A stretch of 64,000 nt of DNA from positions 80,819 through 144,818 of IMG/VR virus record IMGVR_UViG_3300045988_060821. One strand, 5' to 3'. Within the stretch, counting starts at the first letter, position 1, and every line of letters starts with the position of its first letter. The DNA is from a virus. The translations under genes were made by a program, and so were the position numbers. Positions 7,648 through 63,707 of the stretch are shown one piece after another. The notes under the pieces were generated by a model. The model was not told the DNA's origin. It saw only the letters and a program-made list of their open reading frames with translations, and searched no databases.

Positions 7648-7721
7648 TTGGACGGATTTAATTATCTTAACCAAAGCAATTTTTATAATATATAGAGTTA
7701 GAGAAAAAGGAGGCGCGGAAT

Positions 7722-10463: not shown

Positions 10464-10468
10464 TATTC

Positions 10469-12372
10469 ATGTTTGAGTATCTTAATGACATGGATTTTCT
10501 AATCTAGTTAGATAAGTTGCATATGCGAGTACAGTATGCAAAAATTATTCTCCTTTCTTTCAAGGACGAAGAACCTATTAAAGAGATTTAGGGTTCTATC
10601 ACGAGTGGCAACTTGAGTGTTAATGGTTCTTCCGCAATTAGAAGAACCATTAACCTTACTATGCTTGCTTCTATTGATAATAGTAATCTTGAAGATATTG
10701 ATAACGAGATTTCTATTAACAAGAAGATTAAAGTCTTAATTGGTTATGACAATCCATTAAAGTCTTATAAGAACTATGGAGATATTATTTGGTTTCCTTG
10801 CGGCTTGTTTGTTTTATCCTCTGCTAATATTAGCCGCTCTACTAGTGGTTGGAATATTTCTATTACGGGTAAAGATAAGATGTGTTTATTAGACGGAACC
10901 GCAGGCGGCACTTTGCCGGCATCAATAACCTTTCATGAAAGTCTTGTTTAGCTTGATAATGGAGACGTAGAGATTCAATATCCTACTATCTTTCAAATTA
11001 TCTATGAAGCGGTAAATCACTGGGGTGGAGAAGCTATTGAGAATATTATCATTACTGACATTGATGAAGAGATTAAGATGTTAGTAAGATATATGGGAGA
11101 TAAGCCAGTATATTTCTCCAATGACTACTAGAGTTTAAGCTTTGAAGCGCAAGCAGATTATCCGCATATGTTTAGTTATGGACAAGATGTTGGATATAAG
11201 TATACCGACTTTACCTATCCAGGAGAGTTGGTATTAAATGCAGGAGACACGGTAGTAACTCTATTAGACAAGATTGTTAGCACTCTTGGCAATTATGAAT
11301 ATTTCTATAATATAGATGGCAAGTTCGTATTTCAAGAGATTAAGAATTATCTTAATACCGGTAGTCCTCTATTAGAGTTAAGTCCAGAAGACTATGTACG
11401 TTCATATAATAATGCAAAGTTTTTATACTCGCTTACCGATCTTGACACGACAACCGCGATTACCCGCAATCCTAAGTATGATAATGTGAAGAATGACTTT
11501 TATGTTTGGGGCAAGCGTAAGACTTCAACAGGCGTAGAGGTGTCTATCCGTTATCATCTTGCTATTGATGATAAGCCAGATATTGACTTAGCTATGTAGA
11601 ATATGTGGGAAGTCAAAGATAAAGAATCTAACCTTATTGTGCGTTATGATTTCAATACTCTTGATGAATACAGCGTGGATGGTTATGTAGTTACCTTAGT
11701 AGGTACTCCATGCGACGAGTGGAGAGAAGAGCTATACCGTCGTGCTCTTAATGCTTAGGTATCTAATAGTGTCTATGATAACTATTATGATTCAGAGCTA
11801 ATTGCGGAGTGGCGTAATCTATATAATCCAATGAACAAGAATTGGGATGCTACAAATCATTGGAACCCAGATGTATTTAATGACCCAGGTTCTATTAACT
11901 TCTGGCTAGATTTTATAGATACTAGTTCCGCTCTCGGTAAGTATTCTATTAAGAATATTGGCCGTAGGACTAAAGTCGTTAATAATAATGACATAAAAAC
12001 CGTATATAATAGCGAAGTTCCTGATGTTGTATTTATTGAAGGATTAGATTAGGACTTGATTGTTAAATATCAAGGGATTGGTTAGAGATTCTTTATTCTA
12101 ACCAATGAATACTATGATATGTTTTCAATAAGCACTACTGGAACTAGTTGCTTTGACCAAATTCGAGAAATGATGTATTAGAATTTATGTTATAATACTA
12201 CTATTTCTTTAACCTGTTTGCCGAAATATTATATAGAGCCTAATAATATAATTAGGGTTGAAGATAAAGATAGCAATATCTATGGTAATTATCAAATTAC
12301 TCAATATTCTCTACCTCTTACTTATAATGGCGCTATGAGTATTACTGCAACAGAAGTTTTAACACGAGTATA
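10469..12372 (+). CDS. Virion structural protein (about 634 aa, baseplate or tail-associated) with recoded TAGs.
   Basis: SD box AAAGGAG then ATG at 10469. Pieces 10613-10951, 11168-11599 and 11831-12052 are congruent. TAA at 12370-12372. Confidence 0.55.
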
Positions 12373-12386
12373 AGGAGGAGAGGGCG

Positions 12387-12965
12387 ATGTCTGCTATTGG
12401 ACAAATCTACTATCGTGTAGTAGATACAAGTAGCACTGGCGATGGAAAACATTATATTTCCTCTGGAATTGATATTTACAATGATATTGTAAGTGCTTCT
12501 AGTGCCAAATAGTTTACCAAAGTTGGTATTCAGGCTCCACCGGGAGCGCAAGTTGTCATGAATGCTAGCAAGACTATCATGATCGGCCGCACTGGTATTT
12601 ATGAGCTTGATGAAGATATTGTTATTACAAGTATGAAATTCGTTCGTCCTACAGTTTATATTAAAGACGAGGAAGAATCAGAAAGTAAGAAACAAGAAGG
12701 CGAGAAGATTATCAAGGAGGCTAAGGCGGCTCTTGAGGCCGCTATCGCTGCATTGGGAGAAGAGCCTACTGATCCAACTTCTGATGCTTATAAAACCTAT
12801 TGGAATGGATATAATGAAGCCAATGAGACTTACATTGCTGCATTTCAAAAAGGTAGTGCAATTTTAAATCAAGGTCTAAATGGAGTTTACAAGGAAGATA
12901 AAACTGTTGTTGGCGAGTTAGATAACGTGATTGTAGACTTTATTTACGATCCACTCTAGGGATAA
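12387..12965 (+). CDS. Hypothetical virion protein (about 192 aa, 2 TAG).
   Basis: SD box TAAGGAGGAG then ATG at 12387. Piece 12558-12959 is in frame. TAA at 12963-12965. Confidence 0.5.
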
Positions 12966-12977
12966 GGAGGTATAGAC

Positions 12978-14897
12978 ATGCAATCTTTCTACGGAGGTCC
13001 TGCTGGACAGAGCTTCGAGATTAAAAAGATATTTGAGTCTTATTACGGTCCTGATGGAGCGCAAGTTGACTTAGATAAAGGATGGGCATCTCCTATCTCT
13101 GTGGGCGAATTTGTTATGGTGTCTTATGGCTTGCCATCTGACGCTACATACATGACTCGCATGAACTATGACTTAAATGCGGGTGACAAGAAAAACTTAA
13201 ACTCTACTTTATGGTAGAAAGTATATGACGAGTCTGCGGGAGAGGGAAGTGGTCTTAGCTATAAGCTCATTTCTTCTTGCACCGGTAATACTCCAAAGAT
13301 TAGTATTACAAAACCCGCAATCGTGCTTCATGCGAATGAACAGCCAGACATTGAAACTGATTTATCTAACCAAGATATGCCAGTTATTCAATTTAAGTTG
13401 CCAAGAGCATAGGTATTATCAATGCCGCAAGAAGCAACTGTTCTAAATGCGGATGAAAAGCCAAGTATTGTATATAACGATGATGATATTGACCACCCAA
13501 CCGTGCATTTTAATATTCCGCAGTCTCAAGTAATTGATTAGGTTGCAGTTGATGTTATTGGCGTTGGGGAAGAACCAAAGGTCAGACTTGACTTAACTGA
13601 TATTAACCGACCTGTACTTAAATTCCAACTACCTGTAGCTCAGGAATTTTTAGACAGTAACATTCTTCACGAAGTATTAAATGCTAATGCTGAGCCAACT
13701 GTAAGTTTTGGTTATAGCGAAGAAGATACTCTTCACAAGCATCCTATCTTGACATTCTCTCTGCCTCGTAGCCAAGTAATGGCTGCACCAGAGACGATTA
13801 CTAGAGCGCCAGACTTTGAGCCTAAAGTAACTGATGTTGGAACGGTCAATGAACCTAAATTACATTTTGAATTGCCTCGTGCGGTTAAGTTCTATTATGG
13901 TAGCTTGTTAGGGCAAAGAACCAATAAAACATATACTCTTACCGATCCACTTTTCGCCAATTATGGAGTTGGAGATTACTATATCAATGAATCCACTGGT
14001 TTTATTTATAAAGTAACTAGTAAGACAGATGATACTACTTGTGTCTTTGAATATCAAGCAAGCATTCAGCAACCGCTACCAGTAGTCAACGCTAGTGCTA
14101 TCGCTCCTTATATCGAAGGTGACGAAGGATTTAAACCTGCGGTTCCGCAAGTTAAAAGGACACTAACAAACGCGGAAGGTACCGAATGGCAACTTGAATT
14201 TAAGCTCCCATAGGCTCCGAAGCCCGCAGTTTCTTCTACTTTTGTTGGTTCGGCAGAGCAAGGATCTGTCACTTCTGCTATTACTAGCGAAGACACAGTA
14301 ACCTTTACTTTCAAGATTCCAACTGGTAGTAAGCTATTCGCGGGTCTTGAGATTACAGCCGATGGAGCAACTACCACTATTGATGGCGCGAGAATCGGAG
14401 ATATTTATCTCAATAGCGAGACCGGTGTTTTGTATACTTTAACCGCTAATGGATGGAAAGCTAGTGAGAAGAGTATTAAAGGTCCTGTTGGGGATGCTCT
14501 TAATATTGAAGCTGAATATCATTTAACTGAAACTGCGGAGTTCGCTGCTAGTTTAGCAAATGGTGTCACCTATATTCAGGAACACTATTCTGGTACTATT
14601 GATTCTCATAAAATCTTTGCTATTACTTGGGCTTTGCTTGATAATGGCGGAGATGTATCTTACTGGTATTATAAAACTAATGCTGGTGAGTGGGATAGAG
14701 CGCAATTAACTGGTGGCATTTCTAGTTTAATTGAGCAGTCTTACAAGGAAAATGTTGACAATAAGACTTACTCAGTCAATTATATTAACTCGCTAATTGG
14801 CGGCGATGGAGATACATCAAAAACGGCTTATTCTAAAGATTAGGTATAGAGCCTTGTTTCATGGGGATCTTTCCAAGACCTTATAGAAAAGCCTTGA
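12978..14897 (+). CDS. Fibre-like protein (about 640 aa) with tandem ~30-aa repeats ending in (K/H)F.LP..Q motifs. Recoded TAGs; TGA stop.
   Basis: SD box TAAGGAGG then ATG at 12978. Pieces 13749-14213 and 14430-14843 are in frame. The repeats are ...VIQFKLPRA, HFNIPQSQV, LKFQLPVAQ, LTFSLPRSQ, LHFELPRAV and LEFKLP. Confidence 0.55.
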
Positions 14898-14916
14898 TTA
14901 AAGGGAGGATTTAATA

Positions 14917-16210: not shown

Positions 16211-16850
16211 GCTCTACCTGTTCTAGCTCCTCTAAAGAAGCTGCTCCATAAATAGAGATTTTATACTACTGCATTTGACGATACATTGGATATACAGCCG
16301 CAGAGATGGACATAGACAATGCAACAAGATTTTCTAATGTCCAAGGCTAGCACTCTTCGTGTCGAGCGTGCCATTCCAGAATTGGAGATTCAATACCTGC
16401 CTGAACGGCGATCTGATATTGACTTAAGTTAAGACTAATCTCAGATTGATCCTCCATTGTAACTCCATATTCTTTTCCATCTGTCCATGTTAATGGATGA
16501 GAAGCAAGATACTCTGCGAAAAGTAGCTTGTTCTTCTCTTGCTTAAGCTCTTTAGCTTCATCTAAACTATAACGATAAACAAAACTCTGAGTTTCATTGT
16601 CGAACTTATATAGATTAGGTGTAACATTGGATGGAATTTCTTCAACTTCGATAACGCGAACTGCGTTAGGAGAGTTGATTGTATCAGCTTGAATTAAGAC
16701 ATAATGAGTGTCGCAATCAGAGCCAATAACCCCAGTGCCTTCTTCTTCTGAACAGGCAACGACAATACCATTGGAAGATTGCAGTTTAATGTAACGAAGA
16801 TTGTCGAGAATATCAACTACAATATTCCCACGATTTAATAATACATACAT
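16194..16850 (-). CDS. Hypothetical protein (about 218 aa, 3 recoded TAG). Its ATG overlaps the RT stop (TAATG).
   Basis: ORF 16347-16850 continues through TAG at 16347-16349 to TAA at 16194-16196. It is translationally coupled to the RT. Confidence 0.45.
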
Positions 16851-18115
16851 TACTTTATTTCAACTCCTTTGAATAGTGAACGAAAATAATTATCCATATC
16901 TTGGATAATATAGAAGCTAGATCCTTTAGCGATATGTGCTCTCCAACCTTGATAAGATTTCTGAATTTCTTCAGTAGGAATTTTACCTTGTTGCCATAAA
17001 GCAGCCATTTTACGCAATTTTCTGCGCTAATGAACAATCTTTTTCTTAAAAGGTATCTAGATTACATGATTTGTAGTAGTTAAATAGAAATTCCATTTAA
17101 GATACTTAAATGGAGTGCCATGAACCTTATCTTTAGGTGCGATAGGGGTAATGCGCGAGATAGTGGTTTTCTTCTAGTTAAGAGTAAGACCTATATCTTT
17201 TAATTTCTTCTCTATCTTAGCTTTACATTCTGCTAAGTATTTGCTATCGTTACATAGAAGATAAGAATCATCCATGTAGCGTCCATAATACTTAATATGT
17301 AATTCTTCTTTAATGAAATGGTCAACTTCGTTCAAAGCTAGCAATGCAAATAACTGTGATGTCTAACTGCCTAGTCCAAGACTTTTAGCTTCACACTCAT
17401 AATATTGATGATGCGGCCGGAAAGACTGGATATCCGCAGGTATATATTTTCTACCTTTAGCAATATAATACTATTTGCCCGGAATTGGATGCTTATCTTT
17501 TGTTAGCTTAAAAGAAAATGTATCAATTAGGTATGAGCATAATTCATAGACTTGAGGATCTTTAATAACACGCTTAGCGATTTCTTTAAGAGCCTCATGG
17601 TCGATAGAATCAAAGTATTTACGAATATCAATTCGTAAAGCAAAGAAATCGTTTCCTAATCCGTACTCTCTATGAGCCATCTGTAAATGTTTCTTTGCTC
17701 TTGCTAAAGCAAAATCTATACCTCTATTTTTAAGCGTTGCATAGTTATCATAAATAAACTTAGGAGTTAATTCTGGTAGTAAGCTCTATTCACATAGGGC
17801 ATTTTGTACCAGTCTGTCGTTGATATGACACGCTCTTATATCTCGTGGCTTACCTCGTTCAATGATTGAGAAACAACTAAACACAAGCTGCTTGTATTCA
17901 CAAGCTCGCAAATCGGCTTCTGTTTGTAAGATTGTTTCAATTCTATTCTCTTCAAAATTGATTGTACTATCTTTCCATCGAACATTTCGACAAACTCGAT
18001 AAGAGGAATCATATAATGCGTCAAAACTACAAAAACGCTCGAAAGATGTCTACTACTAACTCAACTTCTTTCTCCTTATCATACAGTAATAGCGGTCACT
18101 TCGCGAGTTCCGCAT
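16850..18115 (-). CDS. Diversity-generating-retroelement reverse transcriptase (about 420 aa), read through about 9 recoded TAG codons.
   Basis: The frame of ORF 17471-17680 carries the RT motif-2 sequence FDSIDH (RIDIRKYFDSIDHEAL). Extending that frame through TAG codons gives YYGRYMDDSYLL (YxDD catalytic motif) and GLTLNQKKTTI downstream. The gene ends at TAA 16850-16852. Confidence 0.85.
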
Positions 18116-18368
18116 CTGTAATCGTATTTATTTATCCGTCGCAAGGACGAAATAGTCAAGTTCTCCTTAGATGAAAAGGCATCTACCTATAATATACTAT
18201 TTAATAATATGTTCTATTCCTTCTCCTTCTTAGTCCACAAAGGTGAACCAATGCATCCAGAATAAACCATAATTAGATGGACAATAATATATTCTGGGGT
18301 ACTATTCTAGGTGTTGCTCGTCTGCGCTGCTTCGCAGCTTGACTTGCAACGTGATAGCTCCATCTAAT

Positions 18369-18468
18369 CCGGCGCGAGGCCATTGCTGTTGTTGTAGTTG
18401 TTGTTGTTCGCGTTCCCGTTGTTGTTGACATTGCACACGTTGTTCGAGTTGTTGTAGTTGCGCGAGCG
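18369..18468 (-). repeat. DGR template repeat (TR). The coding-strand sequence is AAC-rich (translating to RSRNYNNSNNVCNVNNNGNANNNNYNNSNGLAP).
   Basis: 100-bp near-repeat of 19097-19196 at offset +728. There are 22 mismatches; 21 of them fall at TR adenines on the minus (coding) strand. Confidence 0.85.
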
Positions 18469-19076: not shown

Positions 19077-20852
19077 TTAATTACCAATGACGAAAGCCGG
19101 CGCGAGGCCAAAGCTGTCGTTGTAGCGGCCGTAGTACGCGTTCCCGCTGCCGGTGATAAGGCACACGGCGTTCGAGTAGCTGCAGTAGCGCGAGCGCTCC
19201 CATGGATAACCGTAGCTACTTGTGGATGTATCTCCTAAATACATGATGCGTGTAGCATTACTGGTATAATAACTATACGCAAAATTCTTACCCTAAGTAC
19301 ATTCTGCTTTTGATGTAGTAGAATTGGCAATAGAAAGAGGAGAATAAATATCAAGACCAAATTCTCTTTCAGAAAGCAAGAATACTGTTTCGTCATTATA
19401 AGTTACATTTTGATTTCTGTCACCATAATTGGGGCAAGTACCTTTTTTAATTGTCTTAATGGCTGCTTTACCGGGGAAGGCATTATAGTAATTTTGACAC
19501 AGGCTTCTAGCTGTAGAACCAATCCAAGCTGCATTACTACCAAAAGTAGTATATTGACTTAAACAGTTTTTAGTCTGGAATGTAACTGTATTATTAGCAT
19601 CTTGATCTACGCCAATAACTCTAATTAAGTGAGTAGTAGTACCTAAAACTGCGCTTGAAAGCGTTACAGATTTAGTTGTACCAAGAATGGCACCACCGCT
19701 ACTAGTCTTAATAGATGTACCAGTATGAGAAGCAAGATAGTTCTTTAGTCCCGTAAACCATGCTGCATCAACAGTACCACCATCAGCGCCCCAAGACCAA
19801 TATTCTGCGCTAACGGTAATTGTCTTATTGGCAGGAGCAGTATGGTTAGTACCTGCGGCGACACTAATAGTAATAGTTTTTGCGGAAACCGCAGTAGAAC
19901 CATTACCTTTAATGGTAAGAGTATTGCCATTAAGAGATAGTGTTAAACCAGAAATACTAGTAGGACTGTAGCTAATAGCGCCATCACCGGTGCGAGTAAT
20001 AGTAACAGCTACACCGGAACTATAGTTATTACCATTAATAGCTACTGTTGTTGGGTTTACATTCAAACTACCTGTTGCTTTGTTGATTGTCCAGTTGACA
20101 TTAATTGCGGTGGTCGTTCCGTCCGTCCAGCGATAATTGCTTCCTGGTGTAAAGGTAGCAATATAAGTGCCAGCATTAGTTGCAGATGTTGTGCCACCGA
20201 TAGTCATGTAACTAGCATTGTAGTTATTCCAATAACTGGTGCTACTAACAGATTGCGCGCTTCCAGTATATGTAAGATTACTCTTCCACGTAGGTTTAGC
20301 TACAGACTTACGATTGACTGTGACATTAAAAGTCGCAGTTTGAGTAATTCCATTTTCTGTGTAGCTAACTGTAACTACTTGATTTCCAACAGTTGAGAAA
20401 GTTGTTGGAGAACAAGAGTAACCAGTTACAGTTTTAGTTTGAGAATCGGAATAACTAGCTGTTACTACCATTCCCGTGGTAACAAGAGTATCTCCATACT
20501 CATAAGTCAACTTATTGGGTTTAGTAGTTACAGCAATCGTGGAGAGCCTATGCGTGACTGTGACTGCTAGAGTCGTAGTGCAAGTTTCTCCGCCCTCAGA
20601 GTAGGTGATGGTTACGGAAGTAGTACCATCAGTTAAGACGCTAGGGGATACAGAATATCCACTAACTTCTGCGGTTGCTAGAACCGCTTGCCCAGTACCA
20701 TAAGATGCGGTAACGACCATACCGGCGCTATTGAAGCTGTCGCCCGCAAGATAGCTGGTCTTAGTAGGCTTAGTGGTGACTTCGATCTTCATAAGAACGA
20801 TGCCGCTTCCTCCACCTTTTCCGCCTTGCTCAGCTAAAATACACTTAGGCAA
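19077..20852 (-). CDS. DGR target protein (about 591 aa): Ig-like (BIG2-type) repeats followed by a C-terminal C-type-lectin/FGE-like variable domain. One recoded TAG at 19293-19295.
   Basis: Strong SD box GAAGGAGG then TTG at 20852 (alternative ATG at 20792). ORF 19293-20996 reads through the TAG to TAA at 19077-19079. The VR occupies the last ~35 codons. It carries repeated VTASY...TVTV Ig-like modules. Confidence 0.8.
19097..19196 (-). repeat. DGR variable repeat (VR) at the 3' end of the target gene. It includes an invariant GC-rich 14-bp 3' element (TGGCCTCGCGCCGG on the coding strand; IMH-like).
   Basis: See the TR entry. The VR codons encode RSRYCSYSNAVCLITGSGNAYYGRYNDSFGLAP. Confidence 0.85.
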
Positions 20853-24673: not shown

Positions 24674-25534
24674 ATGTTCAATAATTCTAATGGCTATAGT
24701 CTAGCTGATATTGCGGCTGCTACTGGTGGTAACAACCGCAATGATGGTATGTGGGACAACGGTGCGTGGTGGATTATTATCCTCTTCCTCTTCTGTTTCA
24801 ACGGTGGTATGTGGGGTAATGGTTTCGGTCGCGGCATGGGCGGCCAAGGCGCTGGATCTCCTGCGTTCCAGGGAACTGCAACTCGTGAGGAAATCGCTTA
24901 TGGTTTCGATATGAACGGTCTCCAGAGTGGTATTCGTGGTGTACAGCAGGGTCTCTGTGACGGACTCTATGCTATGAATACTGGAATGTTAAATGGCTTT
25001 GCTGGTGTTAATAATGCAGTTTGCTCTCTCGGCTATCAAACCGCTCAGCTTGCTAACGGTTTAACTTCTGACATTGTTGCTAACCGCTTTGCCGCACAAC
25101 AGGGCGTATGCCAGGTTGAAAATGCTATCAATCAGGCTCGTTATGATAATACTATTGGTCAGAATAGTATTGCTCGTGAGATTTCTGATTGCTGCTGCGA
25201 AAATGGTCGCGCTATGGAACGTGGTTTTGCTGATATTAACTATAATATGGCAACCAACACTTGCGCTATCCAGACCTCTATGGCAAATCACACCCGTGAT
25301 ATTATCGACAGTCAGAACGCTGGCACTCGTGCTATCCTTGATTATCTCTGCCAGGAGAAAATCTCTGATCTCCAGAGTGAGAACCAGGCTCTCCGCCTTG
25401 CTGCATCTCAGCAGGCTCAGAACAATTATCTGGTCAGCCAGCTCGGCACTAAGGCACCTGTTCCCGCTTATGTGGTTGCAAACCCATACTGCAACTGCGG
25501 GACCGCAGCTTATGGTTGCGGGTTAACTGCCTAA
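24674..25534 (+). CDS. Gly/Asn/Cys-rich membrane-anchored protein (286 aa, no TAG, higher GC).
   Basis: SD box AAAGGAGGAACA; intact ORF; one TM (WWIIILFLFCF); 13 Cys. Confidence 0.5.
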   Translation: MFNNSNGYSLADIAAATGGNNRNDGMWDNGAWWIIILFLFCFNGGMWGNGFGRGMGGQGAGSPAFQGTATREEIAYGFDMNGLQSGIRGVQQGLCDGLYAMNTGMLNGFAGVNNAVCSLGYQTAQLANGLTSDIVANRFAAQQGVCQVENAINQARYDNTIGQNSIAREISDCCCENGRAMERGFADINYNMATNTCAIQTSMANHTRDIIDSQNAGTRAILDYLCQEKISDLQSENQALRLAASQQAQNNYLVSQLGTKAPVPAYVVANPYCNCGTAAYGCGLTA

Positions 25535-27437: not shown

Positions 27438-27917
27438 TTACCAAGCGCATTTATTCTTCTTGATATGATGAGTTCCAATGCATACAGCATCCGCAATATC
27501 CTAGATAACATGGATACCATAATTCTATTCTACATAGAGTTGAGCATTCTTTTTCTATTCTGCTCTTGTTCGACCTTTAATACCTAAAGTAGATTTCCAA
27601 GACGAGGCGAGGACTGTTGAATGAGGAATCTGGATTTCTTGCAGTAATTCTGAAACAACTCCATAAACCTCTGCCAAGACCTTAAAGGTCTAAACATTAT
27701 TAGCCACATTGTTCTGTTGCTAAATATCTTCAAAGATTACTTCGTCGATATTATAATCTGTAACTAAAGTCTAAATACCCTATCGTAACTAAACTAGTCT
27801 AATATCGGTATTTGGATCATCTAAAGAAATCTTGCCGTAGGACTTTAACTTTCCATCTTCAAAGATAGCCCATCCCGTAACCTTCGAGGCTTGGTCAAGG
27901 GCTAACAAGCGACTCAT
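27438..27917 (-). CDS. RuvC-like Holliday-junction resolvase (159 aa) with 7 recoded TAG codons.
   Basis: N-terminal MSRLLALDQASKVTGWAIFEDG... and C-terminal ...IADAVCIGTHH (RuvC motifs). It is invisible in the ORF track because of the TAG density. Its ATG overlaps the dUTPase stop (TAATG). Confidence 0.7.
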
Positions 27918-45702: not shown

Positions 45703-46659
45703 TTAGAAGTTGTAGTCGCCCTTCGCAGGAGCCGCAGTTGCCTTAGAGGCACCACCCGCGGCCGCGTTACCACGAGAAGCCTGATACTCGTCCTGACGCT
45801 TCTTAATCTCAGCAAGATGAACCTCACGAGCGGTCATCATCTCACCCAGTTCAGAAGCCAACAAAGTATCTTCGCTATCCCACTCATAAGTCTCAGGCTG
45901 CGCCCAGTTAATCACAAAGTCACGCTGAGAAGTACGAGTTTCCTTTACAACAGCTTCACCAAATGCGCTCTCTTCCTCAGTCTTGCGCACAATAGTTTTG
46001 GATACCTGAATACCCTGAACTCTGGTGAAGATGGGAGAACTAGAAGAAGCGCCGAGATTTTCGAAATAATCGAGAGCCTTAGCAGGAGCATATGGCTCAT
46101 AAACGCTAAACTCAACAGGAAGCAGAGCATTGCGGAAGTCAAATACGCAACCCTTAACAATTACCTTTTCGGGAGTTTCCTTCTCTTCATCGGCCTCAAC
46201 ACGACGGACATTAGTAATCACCATATCAGTGTTGAAAGTTGCACGACTCTTAGGCTCGCACAGTTCCTGTACCTGATGTACGAAGCCCCCCTCGTTACGA
46301 CGGACAGACACCAGATTGCCATCCTTATCATACCACTCATTTAGACCAATGGCAGTATCAATACGGACCTTACCTGCGTTCTCTTTGCCGTGTTCCATTA
46401 CAGAACCAATCTTGCCATCAATGATAGATTGTAGAACATTAAAGGTGTTATTAGGCTTGCCCTTAGCGGTCACCGCAGTTACATAAGTGAAATGTACCTG
46501 CACAACATTGAGCATCTCGTCATCAGTTGCCACGCTAAGAGTACCACTAATAAACTCAGTACCGGGATTCTTAGAGTTGGGGCCGCTCTCCTTCATTTCC
46601 AGCTTGTGCTCGTAAACATAACCTTCAACATGGGATTCATTCTTCATTTTCTTACTCAT
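45703..46659 (-). CDS. Putative ssDNA-binding protein (phage SSB-like) with an acidic-aromatic C-terminal tip.
   Basis: The C-terminus ...APAKGDYNF resembles SSB tails; it sits beside a recombinase-type ATPase. Weakly supported. Confidence 0.3.
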   Translation of the reverse strand: MSKKMKNESHVEGYVYEHKLEMKESGPNSKNPGTEFISGTLSVATDDEMLNVVQVHFTYVTAVTAKGKPNNTFNVLQSIIDGKIGSVMEHGKENAGKVRIDTAIGLNEWYDKDGNLVSVRRNEGGFVHQVQELCEPKSRATFNTDMVITNVRRVEADEEKETPEKVIVKGCVFDFRNALLPVEFSVYEPYAPAKALDYFENLGASSSSPIFTRVQGIQVSKTIVRKTEEESAFGEAVVKETRTSQRDFVINWAQPETYEWDSEDTLLASELGEMMTAREVHLAEIKKRQDEYQASRGNAAAGGASKATAAPAKGDYNF

Positions 46660-48451: not shown

Positions 48452-48763
48452 TCAGTTATCGTCTCCCACAGTATTTGTGTATCCTACAATGTTGAATTGA
48501 TTGAGCCAGCTATCTAGTTCATCAATAACAGCAATACATTTCATACCTCTAGCTTTTGTTAGAAAATATCCATAGCTAATAAATCCTAAATTTTGCGGTA
48601 GATTACGCTCTTTTGTTAACTCTAAGAACTTTTTAACCATCAGTTGAGGATGTTGAGTAACAAAGAGTACCATCTTATCAGGATACTTATGTGCTAAATC
48701 ATTTGCGTAGTACATTAAGCTAGTTGTCTTACCTGCACCACGACTTGCAATTACCTTAAACAT
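48452..48763 (-). CDS. Small P-loop NTPase/kinase-like protein (103 aa).
   Basis: Walker A SRGAGKTT. SD box GGAGG then ATG. TGA abuts the thyA-like ATG. Confidence 0.4.
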   Translation of the reverse strand: MFKVIASRGAGKTTSLMYYANDLAHKYPDKMVLFVTQHPQLMVKKFLELTKERNLPQNLGFISYGYFLTKARGMKCIAVIDELDSWLNQFNIVGYTNTVGDDN

Positions 48764-49680
48764 TATGAACCTCCACGAGTTCCATTCATACCTAGTTCTT
48801 TAGTCTTATAGAACTCAATCCAATAAGTCTCTCGTTCATTTAACTAATCTCTAGGCACTTCTTCCAAAATCTCAAATATAAAATTATATTGACCAGATTT
48901 TTGCATCGCCTAATATAACTTATTAGTCACAGGTCCGTATGCTAAAGAGGTTTTAATGTGCTGTCTAAAACGCTCTTTAATATCAACAGACTAACCAATA
49001 TAAGCCTAACCAGTTGTTAGATCGGTAATTTTATAGATACCGCATACTTTACCTTTATTAGTGGCAAATAGATGCGTCATAAGAATATCATATGCAGGAC
49101 GATAATAGGTCTCCCATATTACTTTATCAATGATTTCCTTTTTCACAAAGTGAATTTGCAAATCACGCAATAGAGTAATATCGTTCAAACTAAATTCATC
49201 AATAGCAAGACGATAATAGTCCTAATCTGCGGCAATTGCTTCTTGGCGTTGCTAAGCCTAGATATAAGATAACTATTTAGCTTCCAATTCATGGAGTTTA
49301 TCTTGCTAATGTGAGATTTGATTAGTTATCTATTGAAGTTCTGCTAAATGATATTTTTCTTTAGCTTGATATGTTTCATCAAGCTCTTTACTTTTCTTTT
49401 CAAATTGAGCCTTAGCGCTCTCTTCTGCTCGCTATTCAGCGCTTTCCCGCAACTTATTCGCAGTATCAGTCAAAGAATTGACAATTTCATTATGTGATAC
49501 AATATCTTCTTTTACTTTTGCTAATTCTCTCTATTTCAATGCAATATCTTGTTCAATGCGTTTATTCTCTTCTTGTCTTTCTTTATTTATCAATACTACC
49601 TAAAGCCGATTATTGCGAAGATATAAAACATATCCGATCAGCGCAAGAATAACCAAGCCTGATAATATATAATAAATCAT
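48763..49680 (-). CDS. Membrane-anchored coiled-coil protein with a C-terminal GIY-YIG nuclease domain (about 305 aa, 15 or more recoded TAG).
   Basis: The frame of ORF 49006-49188 extends both ways through TAGs. The N-terminus is a TM helix MIYYILSGLVILALIGYVLYL, then about 180 aa of Q/E/K/A-rich coiled-coil. The C-terminus reads KVCGIYKITDLTTG-Q-AYIG-Q-SVDIKERFRQHIK...YNFIFEILEEV...ERETYWIEFYKT...GMN (I-TevI-like catalytic core). TAA at 48763-48765. Confidence 0.6.
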
Positions 49681-56702: not shown

Positions 56703-57026
56703 TTAAATGGTTGCTTCATCCTCGACTACTTGCTGCTATTGTTTCTCACACATAGCTAAATCATAAGTAATCCCACCCTTGCGGTGATCGGATTTACTCA
56801 TGTTTAAGTAAAAAGAGCAAACAATACCATGCGCAGACCATGGCAATCCTACTAATGCACTAATCCATGGGAGAGTACCCAGATAACCAAGATGTACGCA
56901 ATAGAAAGCAAGAGCAATACCGGAGATAGTTACAATCCACAAGAGAGAGCGAATGTCGCAAATAAGCTATTTAGAAAATTCTTTTTTCTAGCTATGTTTT
57001 CCTTTTCCTCTTGTTTGACGACCCAT
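56703..57026 (-). CDS. Holin-like small membrane protein (about 107 aa, 2 TM, charged termini). Its ATG overlaps the endolysin TAA (TAATG); 3 recoded TAG.
   Basis: ORF 56736-56942 extends upstream through TAGs to an ATG at 57026 and downstream through TAG 56736 to TAA 56703. Two hydrophobic helices, located immediately after the endolysin. Confidence 0.45.
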
Positions 57027-58432
57027 TATTGACCACTCTTTTCAGCATAACGCTTTAGAACAGCCGCAAATTCGCCACGAGTCATAAAGCGTTTTGGCAT
57101 CAACTGACCTTTTTCATTGCCATTGATTAAGCCATTAGCCTGTGCCCAAGTCATTGCGTCTTGCTCCCAGGTGACTGGTTGCGCAGCGAGCTGACTAAGA
57201 TATACATTCATCATTTCATTGAATTTTTCTTGAGTCATGTCTTCATCATCCTCCTCGATAACTTTAGACTGCATTAAAGCAGCAACATCTTTGCGAACGG
57301 TTGTCATATCTTTGCCATATTTCTTGAACCAATGGTATACATCAGCATGGTTACTACCGAGGCCCAACTGATAGCTATCTTGATGGCAGAGAATGGTTGG
57401 AACTGTTACGCCATTTACATTTACAGAACCATTTGGATTGATATTATATGTCTTACATAAGTAGGCTGTCAATTCGCAAGCCTCTTTGTAGACTTTAGCG
57501 AAGTAATCGGGGTCACTTAGATTGTCTTCGCAGATTTCAAACTGAATCCATCCAGTATTACAGCTACCTTTAGAGCCTGAGCCGCAACCCCAAGGTCTAT
57601 AATTCCAAGGTAGTGTTTGTACTGCGGCTACGCTTCCGTCAGCAAGAGCACCAATCCAAGCGTTTACACCAGCCTGCTATGAGCTATGATTCCAATCGGT
57701 TCTACTGGTATTTTTACCAATTTTAGTAATCAGAGATTGATAGTTCTTGTCGTTCTCAGACGGTTGAACATAACGCTTAATAGTTTTATTATTGGCGCCT
57801 GTACTGTGCCAGAGGACGCCTTTAATATCCATCTTGCGGGTTTGCTTATAACAAGTGCTATTAGTCATCATGCAAACCAATGGGTGATTAGCGTTTGAAT
57901 ATTTCATCTTAGCTATTTCCTCCTTTTGCGTTGAATAAATATTGAAGTAACGTTGGCTATATAACGCACGCTATTTTAGTGTGCTAGAGCTCTGATCTGC
58001 CGGTCTTTCAAACTGAGTGACCACCAAATTAGATGCTTCTTCAACAGATGAGGTAGTCTTCAAGATTTTTAATAGCTAGGAGTAACTTGTAGTTAGTTCC
58101 TGATATAAAAAATCTAGTTGGGTGTTTAAGTCACCAATAGACTTTCCTCGACTTTTACACAGCTAAAACAGACCTTGCTTGCGGCTCCAATATGTCCATT
58201 GAGCTAAACCATATCCCGCAGAATCATGCGTGAAATTGGTATAGGAGCCGTTATCAACAGCCGCAGTATACGAGGCATCGTTCATTCCTAACTTACTCTC
58301 ATATGAGTTCTATAAGTTAGTTGGAATAAGTCCGCTTTCCGCGAATAGATTCCCCATTAGACCTGCGGCACCGCAGTTACTTAATCCTTTTGATTTGAGA
58401 TAATCCCAAATAACTTGAGCATTATCCGCCAA
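57026..58432 (-). CDS. Three-domain endolysin: N-terminal lysozyme-like (phage tail lysozyme family) domain, central Amidase_2 (N-acetylmuramoyl-L-alanine amidase) and C-terminal SLH cell-wall-binding domain. About 468 aa with about 6 recoded TAG.
   Basis: One frame runs from TTG 58432 (SD box GGAGGTGAGG) through pieces 57677-57907 and 57026-57472. N-terminal domain motifs AGLMGNLFAESG...GYGLAQWT...FERP. Amidase_2 motifs LWHSTGANN...NAWIGALADGSV...GWIQFEICE...ILCHQD. SLH domain W..DAMTWAQANGLINGNEKGQLMPKRFMTRGEFAAVLKRY. Confidence 0.8.
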
Positions 58433-58493: not shown

Positions 58494-59867
58494 TTAAATT
58501 TTATCAGCGATAGAAGCAATCTTACTACGATAGATATTCTTAAGAGTTACCTCTCCATAAATATCCTTACCTCTGAATACTTTTGATACTCTCCGCATAC
58601 CATTGTTTGCACCAGAGAAGTGAATATCATCAACCTGAGTTTTTTCATCACCATCAATAATGCAAATACAATCTTCGCCAACACGCTGTAGAGCGAGTTT
58701 CATTAGTGTGCGGTCAAGGTTCTAAGCTTCAGAAATATAGATACCTGCGTTCATACCAGAAGTATCATAACCACGAATATCAGAGAATGGTAGTAAAACT
58801 AATTTACCTTCTGCGATCAGTCTCTCAACTTCCTCTCGACCACCAAACTTACTACTTAGCAAGTTACCAATCTGAGAGTCAAGTAGCTTTTCATCTTTTG
58901 TCCCAGGATAGTATCCGAGACGAGCAGAGTTAGCAGTAGCAACAGTATTGCAGAAGATAATAATTTTATCTAGTTCATGGGCTTCCATTTTTGCCATTAA
59001 ATAAGCCAAAGAAACGAAAGTCTTTCCGCTACCAGCTGGACCTTTAACAAGAGTTAGTTTGTTATTACGCAAACTATCAAATAGCATCTTCTGATAAATA
59101 TCTCCAGAATATGGAGAAATCTTACCAAACCACTTAGAGTTAATAGTCTTAGAAGAAAGGTATCTGAACTCTTCGCCTGTCCAAACCCGCAAATCGACAA
59201 TCTCTCCATTGCTATTTTTCAGGATAAGATACTGTCCTGGTAATAGGTTAAAGGAATTATCGTTCGGGTTCTGATAAAACTCTGCTAGAGCTTCGTCGCT
59301 ATAAGTAACTTCAATATAACCAGTATAATCGTCTACTTCTTCTGGAACGCTCTCAATCATTCCATTACCAAAGAAGCAGTTAGCGATATGCTTTAGACTT
59401 AAATCGTTAGTTACAAAGACAATATCTTTTTCTTTGTCGCACGCAATGGCATCAGACAAGATGCGAGTATCATCAGTAACATCGAAACCAGCTTCTTTAA
59501 TTACGAACTCATTGTCTACTTTGTGCGGGATTACTTCATACTTATCTGGATATTCTTCAAATAAATGAAGCAATAGACGAGCCGAATACTTGATGTCAGC
59601 ATCCTTGTTTGAAGCTGTCTTAATTCTCTCTAATTCTTTTAATGTAATTGAGGAAACTAAGAAGGGCTTCTTGTCCTGCTCAAATAGACTTTCTCCGGCT
59701 AACAAAAGGGAGCAAGTATCGTAGAAGTATCTATCTGTTGGAAACCGTACATCATAGTTCATGTTCATCTTCCTCTTCGTATGTAGTGGCAAATCCGATT
59801 GCCCTAGATTGAGTTTCTCCTTCACTAAGTTTATTAATCGCAACATTGTGACGAACAATCCTTTCAT
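58494..59867 (-). CDS. phoH: PIN-domain plus PhoH-like P-loop ATPase (about 457 aa; recoded TAG at 58722-58724).
   Basis: GPAGSGKTF Walker A and LGYYPG PhoH motif. The C-terminal piece 58494-58703 (..IIDGDEKTQVDD..) is in frame via TAG. N-terminal PIN-like region. Confidence 0.8.
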
Positions 59868-60021: not shown

Positions 60022-60486
60022 TTAATTATTATCGGCCTTCTGTCTAAAGCGTTTGACAGATTCAATAGCTTTATCTTGACCAAGAATATATTTATGTAAC
60101 ATATTTTTCTCTTTATCAAGAGCCTCTTTAAGTGCGTCGGCTCTATATTTGCAGCGCATCATATTTCGATTAAAAGCGCCTAATGGGTCCACTTCCGCAG
60201 GAGTTTTAACGCCAAGACCTAATACCTCTTGATAAAACTGATTGCGGACATTAAACTTATCTCTCTCTTGCTTATAAAAATATTCAAGGGCTTCAATTCT
60301 TGCTTTTGATAGAGCAATATTATATCCAACTTTTTTAGAGTAGAAACCTTCATCACCCTTACTTAGTACAGCAGCGCCATGAAAAGTATGCCCTTGATAG
60401 CAAATCTTTACATTGGTGATACCTTCTTCTTCCCAATAATCTTTCATAATCACAGGAGCTTTATATATAGCTTTAACCAAATTCAT
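60022..60486 (-). CDS. Hypothetical protein (154 aa).
   Basis: Intact ORF only. Confidence 0.3.
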   Translation of the reverse strand: MNLVKAIYKAPVIMKDYWEEEGITNVKICYQGHTFHGAAVLSKGDEGFYSKKVGYNIALSKARIEALEYFYKQERDKFNVRNQFYQEVLGLGVKTPAEVDPLGAFNRNMMRCKYRADALKEALDKEKNMLHKYILGQDKAIESVKRFRQKADNN

Positions 60487-60666
60487 ATAGTTTTGTTCTC
60501 CTTATTTAATTCTTTATCTATATGATAGCAAAATTTTATAGATAAATCAAATTTGCCCTATTTCTCCGAAAAATTTGCTGGGCCTATGTGCGCGGAAACT
60601 CGGAGATCGACGATGCTAGCGACAAAAAAAAAAGAACCGCGCTCTTACGAACGCGGTTCTTCAAAA

Positions 60667-62163
60667 TTACTCCTTATTGGAGGAGTCTGCCAACTTGCCA
60701 CCGAGGAAACCGGTGAGCAAGGTTTTCACATCAATACCGAGGGATTCGCTCAGTCCCTCAGAAACCTGAGCGACATTCTTGATAATGTTGCCAGACAGCT
60801 TGCTGGTGTCATCACCGAACATCACAATCTTGTCAACATTGGTGTACGCCTGACCGGTAGCCTGAGCAATAGCAGGCAACTGCTGGAAGTACAGCTTGAG
60901 GGCTTCCATCTGCATATCCATCTTGGCGGCTTCGCCGTACTGCTTCATAGCTTCTGCTTTCTTCATAAGACCTTCGGCTTCTGCCTCAGCCTTAGCCTGA
61001 ATCGCGGCAGCCTCAGCTTCACCACGAGCCTTAGTAGCCGCAGCTTCTGCCTCACCCTGAACACGAACAGCTTCAGCCGTAGCACGCTGGGCTTCAGCTC
61101 TTTGCTCTGCCTCAAAGCGCTCGGCTTCCGCAGTCTTCTGACGCTCATACAGGTCTGCCTCAGACTGCTTCTGAGTAGCGTACAGCTTAGCATCAGCTTC
61201 CTGCTGAGCAGCATACTTCTTAGCTTCCGCGGTCTTCTTGACCTCAGCCTCCAGAGCACGCTCCTTAATGGCAACTTCGCGCTCCTTCAAGTCGATTTCC
61301 TTTTCCTGACGAGCAATGTCAGCATCTGCCGCAGCCACATCACGCAGTTTACGCTGGTTCTCAGACTCAATCTCCATAGCAGCATTAGCCTGAGCCTGCT
61401 TGGTATCAGCTTCCTGCTTCAACTGAGCCTTCTGAATAGCCAGACTATTGTTGCGCTTGGCAATCTCTTCCTCAGCCTTTACGCGGGCATCATTAGAAGC
61501 CTTAGCGTTCTCAGCCTCGGCAACCGCAATCTCACGCTGGGCATTAGACTTAGCGATTGCGGCGTCCTTACGGATCTGCTCGACGTTATCAATACCAAGG
61601 TTGGTGATAACATCATTGTCGTCAGAGAAGTTCTGGACATTGAAGGAAACCAGTTCCAGACCGAAACGAGCCAGATCAGGCACAGCATTTTCCTGCACCT
61701 TTTCGGAGAATGCCTTGCGATCACCGACCATCTCGGTCAGCTTCATCTGACCCACAATCTCACGAATATTACCTTCCAGAAGGTCGTTAATCTTCTGTGC
61801 GATCTGATCGCGAGAGACATTTAGGAAGTTCTGAGCAGCAAGAGCAATCATCTCTTCGCTCTGACCCACGCGTACAGAAACGGTAGAATCGACTCGTACA
61901 TTGATGTATTCAGCAGTCGGCACGGCAGAGCCAGTCTTAACATCAATCTGAATGGCTCCTAGTGCCAGCTTATCCAGTCGCTCCAAGAAGGGAATCTTGA
62001 TGCCAGCCTTACCGACCAAAATACGAGGTTTCTTGTGCAGACCAGAAATGATATAGGCAACATCAGGTGGAGCCTTTACATAACCAGAAGCCAAGAGGGC
62101 GATAAGAGCAATAGCAATAATCACCGCAGGAACAAAAGGAAGAATAGTCATCAAAATTTCCAT
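60667..62163 (-). CDS. Flotillin-like SPFH/band-7 protein (498 aa; FloT/YuaG-like). No TAG, with a GC-rich coiled-coil.
   Basis: N-terminal TM anchor, SPFH domain, then a long Ala/Glu-rich (EA-repeat) coiled-coil typical of bacterial flotillins. SD box TTAAGGAG then ATG. Confidence 0.75.
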   Translation of the reverse strand: MEILMTILPFVPAVIIAIALIALLASGYVKAPPDVAYIISGLHKKPRILVGKAGIKIPFLERLDKLALGAIQIDVKTGSAVPTAEYINVRVDSTVSVRVGQSEEMIALAAQNFLNVSRDQIAQKINDLLEGNIREIVGQMKLTEMVGDRKAFSEKVQENAVPDLARFGLELVSFNVQNFSDDNDVITNLGIDNVEQIRKDAAIAKSNAQREIAVAEAENAKASNDARVKAEEEIAKRNNSLAIQKAQLKQEADTKQAQANAAMEIESENQRKLRDVAAADADIARQEKEIDLKEREVAIKERALEAEVKKTAEAKKYAAQQEADAKLYATQKQSEADLYERQKTAEAERFEAEQRAEAQRATAEAVRVQGEAEAAATKARGEAEAAAIQAKAEAEAEGLMKKAEAMKQYGEAAKMDMQMEALKLYFQQLPAIAQATGQAYTNVDKIVMFGDDTSKLSGNIIKNVAQVSEGLSESLGIDVKTLLTGFLGGKLADSSNKE

Positions 62164-62346
62164 GTGTTACTCCTTAATATATTAAATTGTTTTATTTATA
62201 AATCAATGCGTTAGCATTGTTTATCCGTAGTAGCCTCCATCGGGAGGATCTCGCTTATAAGATTTACAAAACCCAGGGATACAGCCACAATTAGGATAGG
62301 TATATATACATTTATTACATCTTATGATAGGGCTTGACTCTTCAAT

Positions 62347-62907
62347 CTACAGCTGCGCCTTACACTCCTCAACCTTCTCATTCATTTCCTTGATAACATC
62401 ATCAAGGAGAACAGGATAACACTCATGAGAGTCAACTCCTACATGGTACATAAATGGAATTTCATTGTAGAAGTTGGAGGTCTGATGGGTATGACCGAAA
62501 AGATTGCAAGTTACTTGCTTGAGGGACTCTTTCTCAAGGTTGCCGGTCAAAGTAGGATAATGAGAAGCATAGAAATGATACTTGCGGTAAGTGAAAGCAT
62601 AAGCGTCAAACACAGGAATACCAGTTCTAAGATAGGCTTCTCTACGATTAGGGGTATCATGGTTACCACCAACCACGAGTTTAAGACCATTCATGCGATT
62701 GAGTAAGGCAAGCCCCTCCTCAAGCTTATCAGCTCCGCCAAGCATGAGATCGCCGCAGATAATAAGTGTATCTTCAGGGGCCACACACTCATTATTCTTC
62801 TTTACGATAGTTTCATTCATCTCTTCAACGCTTTCAAAACCACGGGCTTTCCAGATGAACTCCTTATCGTGATTATAATGGTAATCTGATGATAGCCAAA
62901 TTTTCAA
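62347..62907 (-). CDS. Calcineurin-like metallophosphoesterase.
   Basis: Motifs D.H...GDL.D...GNHD. Confidence 0.7.
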   Translation of the reverse strand: MKIWLSSDYHYNHDKEFIWKARGFESVEEMNETIVKKNNECVAPEDTLIICGDLMLGGADKLEEGLALLNRMNGLKLVVGGNHDTPNRREAYLRTGIPVFDAYAFTYRKYHFYASHYPTLTGNLEKESLKQVTCNLFGHTHQTSNFYNEIPFMYHVGVDSHECYPVLLDDVIKEMNEKVEECKAQL

Positions 62908-62913
62908 TATAAG

Positions 62914-63618
62914 TCACTTCCTTTTAGGTGTTGTAATGGCTTCAATTCTCGACATTCCATTTTTCATACGCTTGTATACTGAATTTTTTGAAATATTATA
63001 AATGGAACACCAATCTTTGAAATTGTGAAATTCTCCATTGATTTCAATTAACTTGCTGGCTTCTTCTATGGGGATGTTATTTGGAATGATTTCCAGTGTT
63101 TCTGGATTATATTCCCTAAATATAAATCCCTTTACTGTTTTATATCTGTTACTACCGGATGCGCATTTTCTAATACTAGCTCTATCAGTTCCTAACTCAT
63201 GAGCTGCGGCAGTTATTGTAGGAAAAAATTTCTTTTCTCCACTTGTTTCTGAAATGGCACAAATGGGTGTTGCCAATTTAGCTCGTACTTCTGGATCATC
63301 AAACGGATATTCTGTGTTTAGAGTTTGATTATATCCATGCTAAGAGGTTAAGCTATTATATTCAATAATTGCATCATGCTCTAATTTATATCTTTCTTCT
63401 GGAGTTTGAATATCTTTTATTAAGATTTGAAAATCAAAATTCTCTATACCATATTTTCTTATGGCTCGATATAATGGATATTCATATCCTGCGCGAGATT
63501 CGAGACGAGCATTTTGCTAATGTTCATACCACCTTGTTGTAAATCCTCGTGACTAGTCACTGGAACCAATATAGGTTTTATGGTTAATCAGATTTTCGAT
63601 TTTATAAATGAAATACAT
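62914..63618 (-). CDS. Free-standing GIY-YIG homing endonuclease with C-terminal NUMOD/IENR-type HTH DNA-binding domains (about 234 aa, 3 recoded TAG).
   Basis: SD box GGAAGGTGATAAA then ATG at 63618. N-terminus MYFIYKIENLINHKTYIGSSD-Q-SRGFTTRWYEH...E..YN..L..GYN. C-terminal piece 62914-63276 carries KKFFPTITAAAHELG...VKGFIFREY HTH modules. TGA stop. Confidence 0.75.
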
Positions 63619-63707
63619 TTTATCACCTTCCATTTATAAATGGAAATTCTTACAGACTCTTTTATTACTTCTGACCTCATCTTTGATAGTCATTGAAAAA
63701 CTTATTC

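Follow-up and report, generated by a model that had tools for sequence, protein, structure and literature searches.

The stretch of DNA analysed here, referred to throughout as the window, comprises 64,000 nucleotides (positions 80,819 to 144,818) of the IMG/VR virus record IMGVR_UViG_3300045988_060821, and carries, on its minus strand, a gene for a flotillin-type protein with an SPFH (Band_7) domain. The window belongs to a tailed phage, with a tape measure protein, tail proteins, a DNA polymerase, a primase and NrdD among its gene products. The local gene order is metallophosphatase, flotillin, orf154, PIN/PhoH protein, endolysin, orf107, RNase H, gyrase B/A and ligase (Table 1). The flotillin gene is set off from its downstream neighbours by an intrinsic terminator that begins 5 nt past its stop codon. 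As detailed below, sequence comparisons place this gene in an old phage-specific lineage and not among fresh captures from a host, and it occupies a slot in which genes of the SPFH family are exchanged among related phages.

The first-pass annotation had described the product as a flotillin with a transmembrane (TM) anchor, an SPFH domain and a long coiled coil rich in Glu and Ala, and this architecture is borne out by sequence and structure matches. A single hydrophobic segment covers residues ~3-27 (Kyte-Doolittle peak of up to 2.9, against a maximum of 0.91 elsewhere); as no Lys or Arg precedes this helix and five follow right behind it, the remainder of the protein is predicted to be cytoplasmic. 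The Pfam Band_7 model (PF01145) matches residues 31-209 with an E value of 5.8e-19 and 69 bits (cut-off 23.6), and the Pfam model of the C-terminal flotillin domain (Flot, PF15975) matches with an E value of 1.6e-5 and 25.4 bits, slightly below its gathering score of 27. The NCBIfam FloT model NF058507 aligned to residues 44-486 with 229.5 bits. In a sequence search of the PDB the top matches were human flotillin-1 (E = 9e-50) and flotillin-2 (2e-40), with QmcA at 6.5e-5; the flotillin-1 alignment consists of two stretches spanning residues 32-479 of the query, the second of which (343-479) has an independent E value of 3e-14 in phmmer. The AlphaFold model shows a helix at residues 2-27, an alpha/beta domain at 28-180 with a predicted local distance difference test score (pLDDT) of 75-90, and very long helices at 191-282 and 288-441, followed by residues 442-498, which have low pLDDT and are badly ordered in the monomer model. 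Ala makes up 26% and Glu 16% of residues 200-430. The band-7 domain of mouse flotillin-2 (1win) overlays the SPFH domain of the model with a root mean square deviation of 2.0, and in Foldseek searches flotillin-1/2 lead (E about 1e-20), with HflK/C and prohibitin (E between about 1e-10 and 1e-11), QmcA and stomatin ranked below them. The gene product is a flotillin, nearer to flotillins than to the other SPFH subfamilies, and its best matches are flotillins and not structural coiled-coil proteins. Searches of the PHROGs returned no matches to the protein, leaving the flotillin type without a PHROG family, and no PADLOC defence model matched it.

The flotillin gene must be viewed against the genetic code of its genome, in which, judged from the reading frames, TAG is a sense codon. 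Under the standard code, open reading frames (ORFs) of 100 aa or more cover 76% of the window; with TAG read through they cover 98%. The giant ORFs of a plus-strand block at 100-14,900, those for the tape measure and tail proteins included, each have 3-14 TAGs in frame, and TAG-sense use was mapped to 100-14897 (+) and to the scattered intervals 27438-27917, 48763-49680, 57026-58357 and 56703-57026. The minus-strand block is nearly TAG-free, and encodes the DNA polymerase (1298 aa), primase, anaerobic NrdD, gyrase (gyrA, 787 aa) and ligase. At the well-conserved position of the TAG in codon 382 of the PIN/PhoH gene, 51 of 59 aligned homologues have Gln; the remaining TAG sites fall at variable positions. 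A tRNA gene scan detected none, hence no suppressor tRNA(CUA), within the 64-kb window of this ~146-kb genome. When the 6 kb around the flotillin gene were compared at the nucleotide level with annotated phages, the sole match (4%) was to an Alicyclobacillus phage, indicating no close cultured relative in that set.

The GC content of the flotillin gene is 0.505, compared with a per-gene mean of 0.390 (z = 3.3), and ranks first among the 53 genes of the window. Its GC content at third codon positions (GC3) is 0.519 versus a mean of 0.336 (z = 2.9), and since GC3 is raised as well, the excess is not merely an effect of the abundant Ala and Glu codons. Gln is encoded by 32 CAG and one CAA in the flotillin gene, with no TAG, compared with 153 CAA, 60 CAG and 87 TAG in the late genes; under late-gene usage the probability of finding no TAG among 33 Gln-type codons is 1.2e-5. 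Thus the high GC and the lack of TAG recorded in the first-pass annotation are both confirmed, and the composition of the gene differs clearly from the background of the window. The absence of TAG is meaningful because the genome reads TAG as sense; as most genes of the replication block are also TAG-free, it marks a class of genes and not a foreign origin. Two further TAG-free genes without a Pfam match, phrog_16490 at 24674-25534 (+) and phrog_2367 at 45703-46659 (-), have GC3 values of 0.43 and 0.46, respectively, and may belong to the same expression class as the flotillin.

The first search for homologues was saturated by near-identical copies, and the distant relatives come from a search of cluster representatives and from locus scans. 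Exact or near-exact copies of the flotillin are found on hundreds of metagenomic contigs, many of them 144-148 kb in length and with a conserved neighbourhood; one copy is labelled "hypothetical protein [Caudoviricetes sp.]". Among 1.84 billion cluster representatives there were 4,425 homologues, the nearest non-self clusters being metagenomic and 74, 57, 56 and 54% identical to the query. The IMG/VR scan gave 277 viral loci with relatives of graded identity, from 100% to 51%, on contigs of 90-200 kb. A scan of GTDB, with one genome per species and an alignment of eight sequences as query, gave 591 flotillin relatives. The top GTDB match (L090, 74% identity) lies on a 148-kb contig with phage synteny, which is a phage contig binned into a metagenome-assembled genome. 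The second match, L091 (64% identity; 5004-6533 of a Clostridiales RUG166 contig, GC 0.60), is flanked by NrfA, ResB and CcsA and lies on a true bacterial chromosome; it is either kin to the original donor gene or was passed from a phage to the bacterium. Past L091, identities reach a plateau at 49-58%, formed by chromosomal flotillins of Clostridia (Lachnospiraceae, Ruminococcus, Oscillospiraceae and Acetobacterium). Matches by tblastn in "UNVERIFIED" GenBank records (Enterococcus and Listeria "phages", short scaffolds) were unannotated and possibly bacterial, and were not used.

Neighbour-joining analysis of 114 dereplicated sequences placed the query in a 28-sequence clade with bootstrap support of 99.5%, whose other members are L090, L091 and 25 viral contigs from IMG/VR. 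A phylogeny had been suggested in the first-pass annotation as a means of identifying the donor lineage: the phage clade is resolved, while the Clostridia family that is its sister is not resolved by the neighbour-joining tree. The suggested comparison with flotillins of Bacillota gave Clostridia flotillins as the nearest cellular relatives, in line with the host that had been guessed. Throughout the clade the flotillin keeps one slot, with the metallophosphatase on one side and the PIN/PhoH-endolysin block on the other, and the flanks are more diverged than the flotillin itself, neighbouring proteins being 45-60% identical where the flotillins are 60-77% identical (for example, flotillin 77%, PhoH 58%, metallophosphatase 51% and gyrB 31%). 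The ratio of nonsynonymous to synonymous divergence (dN/dS) of the flotillin is 0.04-0.05, which indicates strong purifying selection; synonymous divergence (dS) is ~0.95 against a 93% identical relative and saturated against relatives of 74-77% identity. At nearly all viral loci the flotillin has a GC content ~0.10 above that of its flanks, whatever the background (0.27-0.47), compared with just ~0.03 on bacterial chromosomes, and at 25 of the 28 clade loci no more than one large ORF exceeds it in GC3. Because the excess of GC and GC3 is still present where synonymous sites are saturated, the bias must be maintained and is not the decaying relic of a transfer; selection on codon usage is its likely cause. 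As judged by these sequence comparisons, the flotillin belongs to an old phage-specific lineage, whose carriers are large gut phages of about 90-200 kb. One viral homologue (L287, 5437-6981) is a mosaic relative to the query, being near-identical in its C-terminal half and strongly diverged in its SPFH domain (55% identity overall), a pattern that suggests recombination within the flotillin gene.

Loci were also retrieved with PIN/PhoH as the anchor, independently of the flotillin. This approach identified near-identical strains, with flanking proteins 96-99% identical, in which the flotillin is absent and the slot is filled by another gene; the boundaries of the exchanged segment are exact, at the metallophosphatase stop codon on one side and just past the terminator on the other. 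The replacement is a Band_7 gene (Pfam E value of 2e-27) with prohibitins as its top PDB matches and phrog_200 as its PHROG family, and is here called prohibitin-type (PHB). It is usually a single ORF of 323 aa with an N-terminal TM segment, and its product can be aligned to the flotillin solely in the Glu/Ala-rich stretch. In codon traits (GC3 of 0.43; 11 CAG, one CAA and no TAG) it resembles the flotillin gene. Members of its family likewise grade in identity, on contigs of 107-149 kb, and the SPFH cassettes examined are all TAG-free and all richer in GC than their flanks. Two loci (L287 and L288) carry a flotillin and a prohibitin-type gene in tandem within the slot, and L285 carries the prohibitin type alone. 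In the unbiased PhoH-anchored survey, which yielded 64 informative viral loci, 43 have a flotillin, nine a prohibitin-type gene and 12 neither; the last class includes one group with an empty slot and a locus (L311) with two small Cys-rich ORFs. A third Band_7 gene occurs in L312, the sister strain of L311. On a related 114-kb phage contig (L293), an 812-aa protein (1-877) with a major-vault-protein shoulder domain, which has an SPFH-like fold, is encoded a few genes upstream of the prohibitin-type gene.

The slot is a hotspot favouring SPFH-family cargo that is exchangeable among related phages; it appears to be previously undescribed, and is the most interesting result of the analysis. The flotillin is an accessory gene under strong constraint. 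Of the earlier description as an auxiliary or moron gene, the accessory part stands, as its terminator, its composition and its strain-level presence identify it as an accessory cassette; the recent host origin does not, exchange taking place within the phage gene pool.

The remaining signals and neighbours of the flotillin gene are collected in Table 1. Under the standard code the metallophosphatase would be 186 aa in length, and readthrough of the TAG at 62347-62349 adds a 42-aa Cys-rich tail; the protein is called as 228 aa on other contigs, and the recoding switch could yield two isoforms of it. No Pfam or PHROG match was found for orf154 or for orf107, although orf107 may be holin-like, judged from its position and its hydrophobic segments. 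The SLH domain of the endolysin points to a Bacillota host with an SLH-binding cell wall. The endolysin is among the least conserved genes of close relatives, with 35% identity where gyrase has 92-94%, and the homing endonuclease upstream of the metallophosphatase is present in some near-identical strains only (L012, L026, L174 and L181). No gene for an NfeD-type partner adjoins the phage flotillin, an observation that is uninformative here because a chromosomal flotillin of Dorea also lacks one. Upstream of the metallophosphatase, related contigs carry NAD-salvage genes, an RNA ligase, Thg1 and an AAA_33 kinase. On six of these (L001-L006), in the part beyond the right end of the window, the NAD-salvage set consists of isochorismatase-like, PRPP-synthetase-like, NAMPT and NAD synthase genes and the RNA-repair set of RNA ligase, AAA_33 kinase, metallophosphatase and Thg1-like genes, and the two sets recall counter-defence modules.

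Table 1. Features of the flotillin locus, in window coordinates.
Feature	Position	Strand	Remarks and basis
Flotillin-type SPFH coding sequence	60667..62163	-	498 aa; ATG start, TAA stop; no in-frame TAG
N-terminal membrane anchor, residues 1-27	62083..62163	-	One hydrophobic helix; predicted N-out/C-in
SPFH / Band_7 domain, residues 31-209	61537..62073	-	Pfam PF01145, fold match
Ala/Glu-rich coiled coil, residues ~191-441	60841..61593	-	Two long helices; model, composition, flotillin-1 alignment
C-terminal flotillin-like tail, residues 442-498	60670..60840	-	Inside second flotillin-1 stretch
Ribosome-binding site (RBS), AAGGAG	62170..62175	-	6-nt spacer to ATG; direct reading
Weak sigma-70-like promoter candidate, TTGATT-16 nt-TAATAT	62179..62206	-	8/12 matches; by eye
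Intrinsic terminator	60621..60662	-	14-bp stem (7 G-C pairs) and T run; terminator scan, sequence
Metallophosphatase, upstream neighbour, left slot border	62221..62907	-	228 aa with TAG readthrough; Pfam Metallophos
orf154, downstream neighbour; right slot border in its upstream region	60022..60486	-	Flanks do not differ between strains with flotillin and strains with prohibitin-type gene
PIN/PhoH protein	58494..59867	-	One TAG (codon 382) read through; Pfam PIN_4 and PhoH, homologues align across TAG
Endolysin, Phage_lysozyme2 + Amidase_2 + SLH	57026..58357	-	5 in-frame TAGs; Pfam
orf107, small membrane protein	56703..57026	-	3 in-frame TAGs; hydrophobic segments, adjoins endolysin, conserved
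HNH/NUMOD-type homing endonuclease, upstream of metallophosphatase	62914-63633	-	3 in-frame TAGs

A diversity-generating retroelement (DGR) lies elsewhere in the window (16850-18115 (-), 18366-18468, 19094-19196 and 19077-20792 (-)). Its reverse transcriptase (phrog_1423, E = 1.6e-84) has nine in-frame TAGs, and its template and variable repeats form a 103-nt pair with 78% identity, 22 of the 23 mismatches being at adenines of the template. The gene for a 571-aa repeat-rich, Thr/Ser-rich protein without a family assignment has the variable repeat at its 3' end.

Flotillins and other SPFH proteins occur throughout cellular life, their cages have been solved recently, and their role in bacteria is debated; FtsH and Sec are known partners of the bacterial members. 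We think it likely that the gene in the window encodes a FloT-like flotillin of a phage lineage, held in an exchangeable slot and acting as an accessory SPFH membrane cage on a host or phage membrane client. The protein most likely serves as an accessory membrane scaffold, available for translation ahead of the code switch. As it lacks TAG, the gene is translatable by unmodified host machinery, and its mRNA would be read ahead of the switch that enables expression of the TAG-containing structural and lysis genes. The strong bias toward codons ending in G or C (CAG 32 : CAA 1) suggests that efficient, abundant expression has been selected for. Once made, the protein would assemble into oligomers at the host membrane, on its cytoplasmic side, as solved SPFH proteins do, forming a ring or dome around a patch of membrane and the membrane proteins within it; with a single flotillin gene in the phage genome, a homo-oligomer would be needed. 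The cage may act on a client of either host or phage origin, for which the FtsH protease, the Sec machinery and the holin/lysis apparatus are candidates. Its role would be an accessory one that modulates fitness during infection, outside the core steps of replication and assembly. Since the two SPFH types interchange and some strains do without the gene, what benefits the phage is probably the generic SPFH cage, rather than an interaction specific to flotillin. A phage cage is proposed on the basis of the solved eukaryotic flotillin-1/flotillin-2 structures, in which 44 subunits build a dome or truncated cone attached to the membrane (PMC11260169, PMC13000311); we infer both cage formation and the candidate clients by analogy with solved SPFH complexes (PMC11260169, PMC13000311, PMC12624060).

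A more general proposal, which we put forward tentatively and hold to be doubtful, is that a whole group of large gut phages keeps a dedicated SPFH slot with interchangeable flotillin-type and prohibitin-type cage proteins, and that cages built by the virus before the switch wall off a host or phage membrane client, such as the FtsH protease or the holin, tuning the timing or robustness of infection. If true, this would be the first functional virus-encoded flotillin, and the exchange at the slot would be a natural experiment in which two SPFH subfamilies are functionally equivalent. A phage lineage with a constrained yet swappable flotillin offers a compact and genetically tractable setting in which to ask what SPFH cages are for, and natural strains with the flotillin, the prohibitin type, both or neither exist for comparison. 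As a well-defined accessory gene in standard code, the flotillin also helps to picture how genes are split between those expressed before and after the code switch in TAG-recoded phages.

Several observations weigh against the picture of a constrained phage-lineage flotillin that forms a cage, or limit how far it may be taken. The 12 of 64 related loci that have no SPFH gene in the slot show that the function is dispensable, and this limits claims of its importance. The bacterial flotillin L091 (64% identity, GC3 of 0.90) nests in the otherwise phage-only clade and other viral flotillins are scattered among bacterial ones in the tree, so that transfers between phages and bacteria do happen; the tree itself is a neighbour-joining tree of a single protein. 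The 229.5 bits scored by the query are far under the equivalog cut-off of 700 for NF058507, and on this comparison the phage protein is a homologue and not an equivalog of Bacillus FloT. The AlphaFold model represents a monomer, and its quality is moderate (pLDDT 69, predicted template modelling score 0.36). The promoter candidate, with 8 of 12 matches, was recognised by eye and is under the threshold of the scanner. A motif shared by the upstream regions of the flotillin and the alternative cassette, AAYAATTTAATATA, was rejected as a phage promoter, as it was found six times in the window compared with 5.9 expected.

A more specific role, as a helper of lysis timing or export, is possible but on balance unlikely. 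The SPFH cage would in this case organise or restrain the holin, or serve as a Sec/FtsH platform, and thereby time the action of endolysin and holin. Manipulation of host membrane microdomains, for example in the timing of lysis, had been suggested in the first-pass annotation. At flotillin-clade loci and the close PHB loci, a distance of 1-6 kb separates the slot from the PIN/PhoH - endolysin - small membrane protein genes downstream of it, and elsewhere prohibitin-type versions are found beside a glucosaminidase or upstream of an amidase gene, and a TAG-free scaffold could precede the TAG-containing lysis proteins. A parallel is provided by the Kayvirus SPFH protein MbpS, which is encoded among lysis genes, between the endolysin gene lysK and tgl and beside the holin-like MbpV, and for which an aid to Sec-dependent export has been suggested (PMC7150955). 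However, the flotillin is a separate transcription unit with a strong terminator, and PhoH and more terminators intervene before the lysis genes. The linkage of slot and lysis block may be mere conservation of gene order. At one locus (L291) the prohibitin-type gene has no lysis gene nearby, the 12 loci that lack an SPFH gene keep the lysis block, and orf107 matches no holin family.

It is also conceivable, although we regard it as improbable, that the flotillin is a conflict gene whose cage shields or repairs the host membrane against membrane-damaging defence effectors, or takes part in superinfection exclusion. Presence or absence at the strain level and type swapping in a fixed hotspot are typical of conflict genes, and the region is rich in genes of repair and counter-defence types (NAMPT, NAD synthase, RNA ligase, a PNK-like kinase and phosphatase, along with Thg1, RtcB and a CCA-adding enzyme). 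In bacteria, the link between the membrane and the PspA system for its repair is made by SPFH proteins (PMC8581546). On the other side, the flotillin matched none of the PADLOC defence models and no known anti-defence family is involved, its dN/dS of 0.05 carries no sign of arms-race diversification, and the association with repair genes could be plain gene order.

That the gene was recently captured from the current Bacillota host as a classic moron, its high GC being that of the donor genome, was the origin proposed in the first-pass annotation; it is now very unlikely and already largely refuted. The features that invited it are genuine: in GC and GC3 alike the gene stands apart from the rest of the window, it comes with an RBS and a terminator of its own, it is present in some and absent from other near-identical strains, and it belongs to a family whose cellular relatives are those of Clostridia, and some viral flotillins (L073 and subsets of L078-L089) do fall among bacterial sequences and lack the synteny. 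However, apart from L091, at 64% and inside the phage clade, bacterial identities do not exceed 58%, whereas phage relatives are graded up to 93-100%. The clade is strongly supported, and one slot is used by phages whose flanking genes share just 45-60% identity. Within this clade dS is saturated, yet the GC excess of about +0.10 and the top-ranked GC3 are kept, compared with about +0.03 in bacteria. The case is a caution for the annotation of viromes, as high GC and a private terminator here mimicked a fresh capture, and comparison reveals an old phage gene. The remaining idea, that the product is a structural coiled-coil protein (e.g., tape-measure-like) that resembles flotillin spuriously through its Ala/Glu helices, for which one may cite a weak PHROG tape-measure match through the coiled coil of the L287 homologue (E = 3.6e-4), is ruled out by the domain and structure matches, since the globular SPFH domain is matched independently of the coiled coil (Pfam 5.8e-19; 1win), the flotillin-1 alignment extends well beyond the coiled coil, the protein has an N-terminal membrane anchor, and the gene sits in the TAG-free non-structural block.

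Among phages, the closest known parallels in genome organisation are the stop-recoded gut phages, above all the Agate clade. Like these, the phage studied here has a large genome, with contigs of 144-148 kb compared with 154 +/- 27 kb reported for the Agate clade (Borges et al., bioRxiv 10.1101/2021.08.26.457843), and a modular form of recoding in which structural and lysis genes carry the recoded stops and replication genes are variably recoded or un-recoded. The likeness is limited to size and modular recoding, no suppressor tRNA being present inside the window, and flotillin or SPFH genes are not mentioned by Borges et al. (bioRxiv 10.1101/2021.08.26.457843). For the phAss-1 group of TAG-recoded phages, with which the comparison was by description only, the text of the paper offers no link to the phage studied here: it mentions no flotillin, SPFH or gyrase and gives a tape measure protein of ~3150 aa. 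In full-text literature searches no description of a phage-encoded FloT-type flotillin was found; a paper on phage Perkons was considered as a precedent and set aside, as it concerns integration into the host floA gene and not a phage flotillin. Stomatin- and prohibitin-type SPFH proteins have been noted in cultured phages, where functional data are absent (PMC7150955; PMC13239085). These proteins (phrog_200, Kayvirus MbpS and the Schitoviridae GIB1 "lipoprotein") are also phage-encoded membrane proteins, but belong to another subfamily and are about 310-323 aa in length with a short coiled coil, compared with 498 aa for the flotillin.

In Escherichia coli, the SPFH cage formed by HflK/HflC on the cytoplasmic membrane encloses FtsH, and this complex affects the fate of phage lambda through the stability of CII, an illustration that such a cage can have consequences for a phage. 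HflK/HflC are related in fold to the phage flotillin (Foldseek E value of 3e-11) with 17% identity, but they are host-encoded and face the periplasm, and their coiled coil is much shorter. The eukaryotic flotillin-1/2 complex (PDB 9bq2 and 9l3g) is the best solved match to the phage protein, with a Foldseek E value of 9e-21 and ~29% identity over ~460 columns. Eukaryotic flotillins are hetero-oligomers anchored by a hairpin and acylation, whereas a single TM helix is predicted for the phage protein. The closest likeness in architecture is to FloT/YuaG and the flotillins of Clostridia, with which the phage protein shares the anchor, the SPFH domain, the Glu/Ala-rich coiled coil and the C-terminal tail. 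In length it is similar to FloT/YuaG (498 aa versus about 490-550 aa); from the chromosomal flotillins of Clostridia, to which it is 49-58% identical, it is distinguished by its separate clade and by its place in an accessory slot of a phage genome.

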